This document shows positions 31,228 through 34,180 of a stretch of DNA of 37,546 nt, piece after piece. A program made the position numbers and the translations under genes. The DNA is from a virus (lineage: Duplodnaviria; Heunggongvirae; Uroviricota; Caudoviricetes): IMG/VR virus record IMGVR_UViG_2713896773_000006, positions 1 through 37,546 of that record, one strand, 5' to 3'. The notes under the pieces were generated by a model that worked only from the letters and a program-made list of their open reading frames with translations, was not told where the DNA came from and searched no databases. How positions within the stretch are numbered: the first letter of the stretch is position 1; each line of letters begins with the position of its first letter.

Positions 31228-32940
31228 ATGTCAGATATCACCGCAAATGTTGTGGTAAGCATGCCTTCGCAACTCTTCACTATGGCGCGTTCTTTTAAAG
31301 CGGTTGCCAATGGCAAAATTTATATCGGAAAAATTGACACTGACCCGGTAAATCCTGAAAACCAGATTCAGGTTTATGTAGAGAATGAAGACGGTTCTCA
31401 CGTTCCTGTTGCACAGCCAATCATCATTAACGCTGGCGGGTATCCGGTATATAACGGACAGATTGCCAAATTTGTAACTGAGCAAGGCCATTCAATGGCT
31501 GTATATGATGCGTATGGTTCGCAACAGTTCTATTTTCCGAATTTGCTGAAGTATGACCCTGAACAGCTTCTGCAGTTACTTCAATCTGATGAAGGGGCTA
31601 CTTACATTGGCACTAATAGCGGGAAAAATCTTCAAGATGAGCTATTTGCAATAAAAAATGAAATATATCAAGACCCGCTTACATCGTGGCCTTTCGGTGG
31701 AACATTAAAAATAAAGCAAGGGGTGTACGATATCGCGTCACCACTCGTTCTCGATTACGGCAACTATGACGCTAAATTTATTGGTTCGACAGGAGTCCGT
31801 GCTCATTATTCCGGAGAAAATATGGCAGAAACGATATTTAACTGCCATGCCTCGGATTTCAACTTAAAGATGCTAGGTGATACAGTCGGGGCAACCCAAC
31901 GAATACATGCTTATGATTATCTTGGAAATATTACGCTTAAAGGTTCAGCAACGTCTTACGGTCTTTACGTAACCAATAAAGCATACACTAAATTAGAGAA
32001 TATTGTGTCTTATGGGCACACTGACGGCGAAGGGTTGCGTACAGACTCGGTGTTAACGTCAGAGTTAGATAATGTGTACTTACAGGATAACCGTATTGGC
32101 TGGCGCGCACTTAATTCCAGTGAATGGTCAGAGCTTAACGCCATCACCGTAAACAGGTTAACAGCAAGTCAAAATACACAATGGGGTATACTTGGTGATA
32201 GATGGGGGGCGGGGACTACTATCAACAGCCTTACTTGCGAAGGAAATGGTACTCAGGGGGATCTAGGAACTGGCGGTATGCAGATTGCCGTTAACGGCCT
32301 TAATGGGTCGTGTGCTTTGGTGCTTAATAACCCGTATTTCGAGGCTAACGCCGGCGGTTCTGACCTTGCCATTGACAACACAGGAACAAGACCCGTCACC
32401 GTAATTATTAACGGCGGCAACTTCCATCGTGTTAGCAGTACGATGTACACCATAAAAAACTTAAATATTACAAGCTCTGGCGGTGGAAAAGTAACTGTAA
32501 TTCTCAATGGTACGACATTCCAGAGCGTAGGTTCTTACGTCCCAAGCGCCTCGCGACCGTATTGGGTTACAGGCTCTAACTGCGAAGTAATTGATATTGG
32601 CTGTACTTTCATGGAGCAAACCAGCAAGGCTACTTCTGTCTCTGCTGGAAGTATTACTCGTTCTGGAAGGATTAACTCGAATGGCAGCATTGATGTGGCT
32701 CCAGGTGTGTCCTCAGTAAGCGTGGTAGCTACTGGTGTGTATGATGTAACGTTTTCTCATCCGCTCGCAGCAGCTACTAATGGTTATGTGGTTCAGATAA
32801 CACCTATATCTGCGCCTGATTCAGTTAGTTGTGATGTTACTTATATTGGTGTAGATACATTTAGGGTGACCCTGCGCAATACGCTTAGCGGAGCAGGAAT
32901 CTCCAGTTCGTTTGCATTTAGCATTACCAGACTACTATAA
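31228..32940 (+). CDS. tailspike protein: P22 gp9-like head-binding N-domain, divergent receptor-binding domain
   Basis: From ATG at 31228: [59 protein letters not shown]... tracks the recalled P22 gp9 N-terminus for about 110 aa, then diverges into a Gly/Asn/Thr-rich beta-helix-like region. Confidence 0.85.
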
Positions 32941-32948
32941 ATACATTC

Positions 32949-32980
32949 GCCGCCCTATTGGGACATATATGTAGGGCGGC
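32949..32980. terminator. bidirectional intrinsic terminator between convergent tailspike and acyltransferase genes
   Basis: GCCGCCCTA-n14-TAGGGCGGC 9-bp stem followed by a T-rich tract. Confidence 0.6.
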
Positions 32981-32986
32981 TTATGT

Positions 32987-34180
32987 TTATTGTTTATTGA
33001 TTGTTGATTGTTGTTTGTTGTTTGTTAATGTGGGTATTAATTCTTTTACTAAAGTTGTGGTTTGTTTTGTTAATTTGATGAATGGCGTCTCTATTAATTT
33101 AAAAGTTAGGCATGATGTGAACGTAATAAGAAATGCAGTTGTGCTTACCAGTATGATAAATGTATTTTCAGTGTAATTATTAGGAATAATCCACGTCATT
33201 AGGCAATAAAGGAATATCCCATGCAGAAGGTAAACGCTGTAGGTGGTTTCTCCTAGCTTTCTGGTTATATTTAATCTTAATATTCCATACAAATCACAAC
33301 CTGATGCGATAATAATAAATGTTATTCCACAAAGAATCAGTGGTAGCGGTGCGTAAGTTGTTTTGAAATACGTCATTTCAAAAATCATTATCGCAGTTAT
33401 TATAATTGGTGTTACTTTTGCTTTGGCAATTCCATTGACTATCTTTGATTTATTTAGCAAAAATGCCAGGAGCCCAAAAAGAAATGATACTATGTGTATT
33501 TTACTGAAAAATAAAATGAAAACAAATAGCGATATTGCGCTAATCATAACCATGTAAATACTGACTTTTCTTTTTATGAGCGCGGAAATTACCGGAAGAG
33601 AAAAATAAAAGAACCATTCATATACAAGTGTCCATGTTACAGCGGCATTGATAGTAAATGAATCTTTTACGTCATTAATGTTCGGCATACCTAGCGCAGT
33701 GAATGGCAACCACTTCATTATTGACACAAAAAGCTCTTCTGTGGATACCTGCATTCTCCATCCAGACTTAAAACCTACAATGATAAAAATGAGACATAGG
33801 CTAACTATGAACATTGGGGTTAATCGTAGTAATCTTGATACATAAAGCCTTGTCCAGTCCTGATCTCCAGAGATAATCTTTGAAAAGAACAGATAACCAG
33901 TAATCATAAAAAAGAATGACACACCAACTTGGCCTAAATTTGCTAACAGATTTGATGAAGGTGCTTCCCATACTCCAGATGACAAGTATCCATTCCAAAT
34001 TGCTGCGTGATGAATAAGCACGAAAATTGCTAAGAACCCCCGCATTCCATCTATTTGATTATTCCTGCCGTGCTCAACAAGATTTATTGGGGAAATTTTA
34101 TCAAATAACCCCACAGCTAATAACGACATCAATATCACGGATGTTATTAATAATAAACTGTTAATTTCAATCATATGCAT
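32987..34180 (-). CDS. oac: acyltransferase family 3 membrane protein (O-antigen acetyltransferase-like; candidate lysogenic conversion gene)
   Basis: 397 aa, many TM helices, DGMRGFLAIFVLIHHA motif of the acyltransferase-3 family; strongly AT-rich; located between tailspike and att/int, as Sf6 oac is. N-terminal start uncertain. Confidence 0.75.
   Translation of the reverse strand: MHMIEINSLLLITSVILMSLLAVGLFDKISPINLVEHGRNNQIDGMRGFLAIFVLIHHAAIWNGYLSSGVWEAPSSNLLANLGQVGVSFFFMITGYLFFSKIISGDQDWTRLYVSRLLRLTPMFIVSLCLIFIIVGFKSGWRMQVSTEELFVSIMKWLPFTALGMPNINDVKDSFTINAAVTWTLVYEWFFYFSLPVISALIKRKVSIYMVMISAISLFVFILFFSKIHIVSFLFGLLAFLLNKSKIVNGIAKAKVTPIIITAIMIFEMTYFKTTYAPLPLILCGITFIIIASGCDLYGILRLNITRKLGETTYSVYLLHGIFLYCLMTWIIPNNYTENTFIILVSTTAFLITFTSCLTFKLIETPFIKLTKQTTTLVKELIPTLTNNKQQSTINKQ

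Follow-up and report, generated by a model that had tools for sequence, protein, structure and literature searches.

The window analysed here is the complete 37,546-nucleotide sequence of the IMG/VR virus record IMGVR_UViG_2713896773_000006, a 37.5-kb temperate P22-like (Lederbergvirus) phage sequence in which a tailspike gene and a convergent acyltransferase gene occupy positions 31228–34180. These two genes very probably form the lysogenic-conversion end of a P22-like phage of Escherichia coli/Shigella hosts with a Shigella flexneri-type O-antigen, and they combine an O-antigen tailspike with the O-acetyltransferase OacB. The pair is the already characterised S. flexneri serotype-converting pair known from phage Sf101, and because this exact cassette has been described there it is not a new domain swap. 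What is new is the joining of the cassette to an attP-int-xis module of the type found in phages SfI, SfII, SfIV and SfV, directed to thrW, and not to the sbcB module of Sf101; the window is thereby a new mosaic of a thrW module, a variant tailspike and a variant OacB tail. The virion and early genes share 95–97% identity in patches with the E. coli phages Huey, Kapi1 and CUS-3 and with the Shigella phages Sf6 and Sf101. The region is laid out as follows, in window coordinates:

30846–31139, minus strand: Mnt/Arc-type repressor gene, 97 amino acids (Pfam Arc 1e-14, Repressor_Mnt 3.3e-14), in the left part of the block common to Sf101 and E. coli G3/10
31228–32940, plus strand: tailspike, 570 amino acids, starting with ATG at 31228 (MSDITAN...), with GGAG 8 nucleotides upstream
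31228–31566, plus strand: head-binding N-domain of the tailspike (virion adaptor), residues 1–113 (Pfam PF09008; PDB matches to the Sf6 and P22 N-domains)
31585–32940, plus strand: receptor-binding, probable O-antigen depolymerase part of the tailspike, residues 120–570, predicted to form a right-handed beta-helix and a C-terminal beta-sandwich
32949–32980: GC-rich hairpin in the 46-bp spacer between the convergent genes, candidate two-way terminator
32984–33026, minus strand: degenerate 7-nucleotide tandem repeat within the 3' end of oacB (Tandem Repeats Finder, TRF; three-way DNA alignment; protein alignment)
32987–34180, minus strand: oacB, O-antigen O-acetyltransferase of the AT3 family, 397 amino acids (Pfam PF01757)
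34181–34271, minus strand: oacB upstream region, presumed promoter site, kept in Sf101, G3/10 and S. flexneri contigs and accompanying oacB in every carrier examined
34272–34307: conserved hairpin with a 15-bp stem at the right edge of the cassette
34313–34468: attP arm on the oacB side
34469–34514, plus strand: attP core, 46 bp, identical to the 3' end of tRNA-Thr (thrW)
34529–35692, minus strand: tyrosine integrase of the SfIV/SfV/SfII/SfI (thrW) type (Pfam Phage_integrase, 3.2e-48)
35569–36003: excisionase-like open reading frame (ORF) overlapping int

In the first-pass annotation, made from the DNA alone, the second gene had been read as an AT-rich AT3 acyltransferase convergent on the tailspike, and the searches agreed on each count. 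The protein encoded at 32987–34180 on the minus strand matched Pfam Acyl_transf_3 with an E-value of 2.6e-32, the PF01757 domain spanning residues 41–353 of 397 with no other domain and no fused SGNH domain. The GC content of the gene was 0.336, compared to 0.470 for the window, 0.441 for the tailspike gene and 0.467 for int, and oacB constitutes the 1194-bp stretch of lowest GC in the window, 3.6 standard deviations under the mean. On its sequence the acyltransferase is OacB: it was identical to Sf101 OacB (ORF16) at 389 of 390 aligned positions and fell into a single 90%-identity cluster with the OacB proteins of S. flexneri chromosomes. Identity was 72% to OacC of S. flexneri serotype 6, likewise an AT3 protein, which carries out an interchangeable 3/4-O-acetylation of rhamnose III (PMC4206707) but is encoded on an SfII-like prophage remnant beside tail genes and not beside a P22-type tailspike. 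Oac of phage Sf6, which acetylates another position, was only 26% identical (over 184 amino acids). The seven residues identified as critical for OacB by mutagenesis (R47, H58, W71, F98, R116, R119, and S146; PMC8952252) were all present (7/7) in the window protein. Cloning of Sf101 OacB into an oacB-negative strain, followed by nuclear magnetic resonance (NMR), showed that rhamnose III is acetylated at O-3 (about 1/4) and O-4 (about 1/5) (PMC4159516), and the OacB chemistry is in this way shown for a protein 99.7% identical to that of the window, for which it is predicted by near-identity. A consensus scan of the region upstream of oacB revealed no convincing sigma-70 promoter. Phase variation of the Dam/OxyR type, as in the gtr genes of P22, was also considered and seems unlikely, as a single GATC occurs in 34181–34528.

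The tailspike had been proposed to retain a P22-type head-binding N-domain of about 110 amino acids and to diverge completely thereafter, which is what was found. The Pfam model Head_binding covers residues 1–113 (E-value 1.6e-65), and a search of the PDB matched the P22 tailspike over residues 1–126 and the Sf6 tailspike over residues 1–115 only, so that no alignment of the C-terminal domain with the P22 gp9 endorhamnosidase was obtained past residue 126 or so. The full-length protein was 86% identical to Sf101 ORF15. Residues 120–570 were 83.5% identical to Sf101 ORF15 and 85% identical to gp13 of the lytic Shigella siphophage Sf11 (tblastn), the last 128 amino acids were 85% identical to a fragment from phage SfX, and comparison with the Sf11 gp13 sequence of PDB chain 9occ_G gave an E-value of 5.5e-255. 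After Sf101, Sf11 and SfX the nearest relatives were at about 30% identity, in Aeromonas and Pseudomonas phages. The receptor-binding module occurs behind three different virion adaptors (the P22 head-binding domain, Tail_spike_N, and the T7 tail-fibre N-domain) and is therefore a portable receptor-binding unit. Pfam assigned no family to the receptor-binding part, one distant relative matching the pectate-lyase-like PF12708 weakly, and the exact tailspike protein returned no record when looked up in the contig index. A perfect tandem duplication of 10 amino acids (NLQEELFAIK x2) opens the receptor-binding part of the Sf101 tailspike; neither the window nor Sf11 has it.

Structure prediction and a fold search for residues 120–570, suggested as a check by the first-pass annotation, returned beta-helix tailspikes and depolymerase folds as matches. 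The AlphaFold2 (AF2) model of the tailspike had a predicted local distance difference test (pLDDT) score of 86.6 and contains the right-handed parallel beta-helix of the P22-like tailspike class; the fold class of the model is that of an O-antigen depolymerase. Three acidic residues conserved throughout the family (E338, E372, and D379 in full-length numbering) are candidate catalytic residues only, and glycosidase activity and bond specificity of the tailspike are presumed.

That phages carrying this tailspike module depend on O-antigen is shown by near-identity to tested proteins. Sf11 is unable to plate on waaC, waaG and waaL mutants of S. flexneri Y and requires full-length lipopolysaccharide (LPS), and its tailspike homologue is present as a trimer on the virion (PMC12724387). 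Sf101 forms plaques on S. flexneri serotypes 1a, 1b, 3b, and Y (PMC4159516), and S. flexneri is the host of the phages bearing the module (Sf101, Sf11, SfX). The receptor-binding DNA was additionally sought in 5,426 complete E. coli genomes and was present in two of them, strains G3/10 and PapM-32-1. As a literature search found no report of the serotype of G3/10, its annotated O-antigen cluster was read instead, and this contained wzx and wzy annotated as of the O13/O129/O135 family together with rhamnosyltransferase genes. The wzx gene of G3/10 was present in 27 of the 5,426 genomes, PapM-32-1 among them, and both carriers of the module possess the O13/O129/O135 wzx and wzy; assuming independence, the hypergeometric chance of both carriers falling within the 27-genome set is about 2.4e-5. 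The E. coli O13/O129/O135 O-antigens are reportedly the ones related to S. flexneri, as Perepelov et al. are said to have described in 2010. The suggestion that the tailspike and acyltransferase together set both the O-antigen that is recognised and its modification is supported by the near-identity of OacB, by the shared receptor module, and by the O13/O129/O135 hosts.

Strain G3/10, a probiotic strain, is the only complete E. coli genome with oacB. Its annotation (1875704–1879760) gives frameshifts for the O13/O129/O135 rfbG and wzy and for a GtrA-family gene, and the O-antigen cluster also contains an IS5; G3/10 may be rough, leaving the oacB of the prophage without a substrate. In PapM-32-1 (3156022–3167361) the same type of tailspike is located at the ybhB-bioA site and is paired with gtrA-gtrB-glucosyltransferase genes, not with oacB. 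As SfX likewise pairs the module with gtr, the receptor and modification modules are separable.

Degenerate TTGTTTATTG-like repeats had been reported by the first-pass annotation as following both genes (32981–33050). The repeat was recovered by TRF (period 7, 6.1 copies, 32984–33026), but its position differs: it lies in the 3' coding end of oacB, where it overlaps the stop codon (32987–32989) and the last approximately 13 codons. A three-way DNA alignment shows 14 bp inserted into the window tract in comparison with Sf101 and E. coli G3/10. This insertion frameshifts the OacB tail from ...TLTNNNQ-stop (390 amino acids) to ...TLTNNKQQSTINKQ-stop (397 amino acids), the last codons changing from NNNQ-stop to NNKQQSTINKQ-stop. 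Exactly this 397-amino acid protein was recorded for E. coli/Shigella assemblies in 43 index blocks. Such a record speaks against the allele being dead, and the variant is presumably active.

Several points weigh against assigning O-antigen recognition, cleavage and modification to this pair. The host association consists of two complete genomes only, which are possibly non-independent, and the partial acetylation in Sf101 strains makes strong receptor masking doubtful. The C-terminal tail of OacB is frameshifted, and the activity of this allele is a prediction only. For the tailspike family we know of no enzymatic assay, nor of any experimental structure of a receptor-binding domain of the Sf101/Sf11/SfX type. 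The modelled part of gp13 in the Sf11 cryo-electron microscopy entry 9occ comprises residues 4–59 only, and the entry thus gives no experimental structure for the receptor-binding domain, the homologous part of gp13 being absent from the model. Finally, the likeness in fold to the Sf6 tailspike is loose, with template modelling (TM) scores of 0.36–0.44 and 13% identity, and hhalign aligned the first beta-helix turn only. This last point also bears on a different view of the tailspike, namely that it is a diverged Sf6/P22-type endorhamnosidase, truly homologous to the Sf6 catalytic domain and using the same inter-subunit active site. The Sf6 tailspike was indeed the top Foldseek PDB match to the tailspike model (E-value 1.5e-7), both proteins target the same O-antigen backbone, and gp13 is termed "Sf6-like" in the Sf11 paper (PMC12724387). 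We nevertheless consider this view unlikely: neither BLASTP nor hhalign against the Sf6 tailspike gave a match beyond the first beta-helix turn, homology of the C-terminal part to P22 gp9 or Sf6 gp14 was rejected by phmmer against the PDB, BLASTP and hhalign, and there is no support for the tailspike having descended from the endorhamnosidase of Sf6 or P22.

It is very improbable that the 14-bp insertion has rendered the acyltransferase allele inactive or given it a different acceptor, with the cassette no longer serotype-converting. The frameshift does replace the last residues and add 7 amino acids, and given the frameshifts annotated in rfbG and wzy of G3/10 some carriers may be rough, with no selection acting on oacB. 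However, the change sits beyond the AT3 domain (residues 41–353) and beyond all seven critical residues, the identical 397-amino acid protein has been retained in many independent prophages at two chromosomal sites, and the remaining oacB DNA is 98.6–99.8% conserved.

With the region read as the conversion end of a P22-like phage, the tailspike would dock on the virion through its conserved P22-type N-domain, and the beta-helix module would bind, and probably cleave, the rhamnose-rich O-antigen backbone; adsorption of the virion through the tailspike to this type of O-antigen has been shown for relatives. The phage would integrate at thrW, which would place oacB at the attR end of the prophage, and in the lysogen oacB would presumably be transcribed inward from its own upstream region. 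OacB, an AT3 membrane enzyme, would then acetylate rhamnose III of the periplasmic O-antigen at O-3/O-4 with cytoplasmic acetyl-CoA as the donor, in line with the mechanism summarised for the family (PMC12423673). The resulting addition of O-factor 9 would constitute the serotype conversion. Adsorption of phages using the same receptor might be weakened, and since acetylation is partial such exclusion may be modest.

The block shared with other carriers extends from about 30838, where it starts on the left in several prophages, to about 34312. Homology to all other carriers stops at 34312 (10 loci), just past the hairpin at 34272–34307. The carriers ending at this position include Sf101 (at sbcB), five prophages by ybhB-bioA, and three by an integrase beside fadL-mlaA-yfdC, a site that we take to be argW from the K-12 map. 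Conservation within the block is uneven, with oacB conserved at 98.6–99.8%, the intergenic hairpin at 100%, and the receptor-binding part of the tailspike at 72–99% in patches, a pattern commonly seen where a receptor-binding domain recombines and diversifies. The cassette is a mobile mosaic block, and four or more integration modules have been found joined to it.

The exact recombination boundary of the oacB cassette is marked by the edge element. This element of about 60 bp (34246–34312), located between the conversion gene and attP, was present in 1,450 of the 5,426 complete E. coli genomes, and a related element precedes gtrA in SfIV and, in Salmonella phage L, bears the annotation "terminator". 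Its hairpin (34272–34307) folds better on the plus strand (-30.6 kcal/mol, z -6.2) than on the minus strand. The hairpin could be a recombination joint for swaps of conversion cassettes. As seen from int it is located beyond attP, an arrangement that recalls sib/tI of lambda, and it could also be a lambda-sib-like retroregulator of int or an insulator.

The acyltransferase gene had also been placed next to attP, and it is: the 46-bp core at 34469–34514 was identical to the annotated SfI core, and oacB is separated from the integrase gene by 348 bp of non-coding DNA. The core is the 3' part of a tRNA-Thr-like fragment and matches the tRNA-like fragment/attP of phage L. Over int-xis the DNA identity to SfIV, SfV, SfII, and SfI was 98.4–99.6% (99.6% for int compared with SfIV). 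The attP arm at 34313–34468 was absent from Sf101 and G3/10 and was common to the S. flexneri oacB loci and E. coli 81EVA.

The thrW junction is not unique to the window. Short S. flexneri contigs in which the common OacB is encoded can be aligned to window positions 34503–32233 (attP arm 95.8% identical, oacB 98.4%, of the tailspike the last approximately 700 bp only), the tailspike remnant of S. flexneri being cut by IS600 at about window position 32233. Longer S. flexneri contigs are collinear with window positions 36527–32235 at 95.2% identity, in the order early genes, xis, int, attP, oacB and tailspike remnant. Sf101 departs from this arrangement of S. flexneri and the window at 34312. 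In S. flexneri chromosomal oacB loci attP is uninterrupted between oacB and int-xis. For S. flexneri serotypes 1a, 1b, 2a, 5a, and Y the literature describes oacB as part of a "transposon-like structure" and as "upstream of adrA"; the gene of strain Y394 is found within the proA-adrA cryptic prophage, 6.8 kb ahead of gtrA. The authors of the Sf101 study proposed that oacB had moved from sbcB by means of insertion sequences (IS) (PMC4159516). We lean, by a small degree, towards a thrW-integrating P22-like oacB phage having brought oacB to the proA-adrA region of S. flexneri (1a, 1b, 2a, 5a, Y), in place of IS-mediated movement from sbcB. The organisation of the S. flexneri loci suggests a decayed tandem thrW lysogen with a gtr phage, later eroded by IS600, and such a tandem would account for the uninterrupted attP in S. 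flexneri chromosomes. The data fit this route, which is simpler than the IS route, and part of it may already have been described elsewhere.

A similar tandem could in principle underlie the window itself, which would then be a chromosomal contig over the junction of two tandem thrW prophages, with int-xis to the right of attP derived from the second phage. The uninterrupted order of conversion gene, attP and int in the complete chromosome of 81EVA and in the S. flexneri contigs fits this explanation, as does the window ending without a terminal overlap. Moreover, both of its ends (1–540 and 36224–37546) lie in early-left genes with paralogous repeats (N-termini at approximately 36224–36586 and near the start), and reference phages match the end-to-start joint in two pieces, about 350–450 bp further apart. 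We regard this origin as possible but doubtful, because an ORF continues in frame across the end-to-start joint and the genes of a P22-like phage are nearly all present in the contig while host genes are absent; besides, the attP arm beside oacB belongs to the thrW type either way, so the oacB phage itself uses thrW. In the chromosome of E. coli 81EVA (1344553–1354101) a tailspike gene, a gene for a 638-amino acid acyltransferase, attP(thrW), int, and xis are contiguous. This acyltransferase differs from OacB and is larger, and the unsplit attP within the chromosome probably marks a tandem prophage joint.

Among the known systems the closest is Sf101 (KJ832078; PMC4159516), also a P22-like podovirus (Lederbergvirus), which has the same order of mnt, tailspike, hairpin and oacB. 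It differs in its HK544/2851-type integrase and its integration at sbcB, as opposed to the thrW-type attP-int of the window, in its receptor-binding DNA, which is only 77–79% identical, and in the OacB tail through the 14-bp indel. Sf11 gp13 (PDB 9occ; PMC12724387) resembles the window tailspike at 85% identity over residues 120–569 and in its O-antigen-dependent infection, whereas its adaptor consists of the Pfam Tail_spike_N helices docking on the distal tail protein of a siphovirus, and the lytic phage lacks a conversion gene. In Sf6 the gene 14 tailspike likewise converges on an AT3 O-acetyltransferase (gene 15, Oac) with a hairpin in between and int/attP adjoining; its head-binding domain is nearly identical and its target O-antigen backbone is the same, but the receptor-binding domains are unrelated in sequence, integration is at argW, and attP lies on the other side of int. 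In Sf6, P22/L, and SfIV, too, the tailspike is followed by a conversion gene converging on it and then by attP and int (all leftward).

The int-xis-attP of SfI, SfII, SfIV and SfV is 98–99.6% identical to that of the window, unlike their virion genes, which are not P22-like. In these thrW integrators and SfX, as well as in Salmonella P22/L, the conversion genes abut attP and a conserved hairpin lies upstream of the conversion gene, as in the window, with gtrABC glucosylation genes in place of oacB.

A bidirectional terminator shared by the tailspike and acyltransferase genes was another proposal of the first-pass annotation, and of this a conserved hairpin on both strands was found, its function as a terminator being plausible but that of a candidate only. 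The hairpin at 32949–32980 has a GC stem of 9–10 bp and folds at -22.3 kcal/mol on one strand and -20.6 kcal/mol on the other (z about -4.5 for each); its conservation in Sf101 and E. coli G3/10 is 100%. With a loop of 12–14 nucleotides and poor T-tracts, it was not recognised by the consensus terminator scan. Sf6 has an annotated terminator at the analogous position.

By O-acetylation, OacB gives the most prevalent S. flexneri serotypes their O-factor 9, a modification that bears on the design of vaccine antigens, and knowledge of the phages that carry oacB and of their integration sites explains the spread of the trait. The window leaves the understanding of serotype conversion itself unchanged. 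It does show that commensal E. coli of the O13/O129/O135 group are carriers of the Sf101 cassette as well, and that there is an intact thrW version corresponding to the chromosomal locus of S. flexneri, which is of some value for tracing the arrival of oacB in that species.

In the public annotation (KPO19622.1) only a 207-amino acid C-terminal fragment of the tailspike is called, and the same 207-amino acid call occurs in two other prophages; in the window the frame of 570 codons is open. Elsewhere in the window, two adjacent phage tRNA genes, tRNA-Asn(GTT) and tRNA-Thr(TGT), are located at 13550–13705 in the late-regulatory/lysis area.

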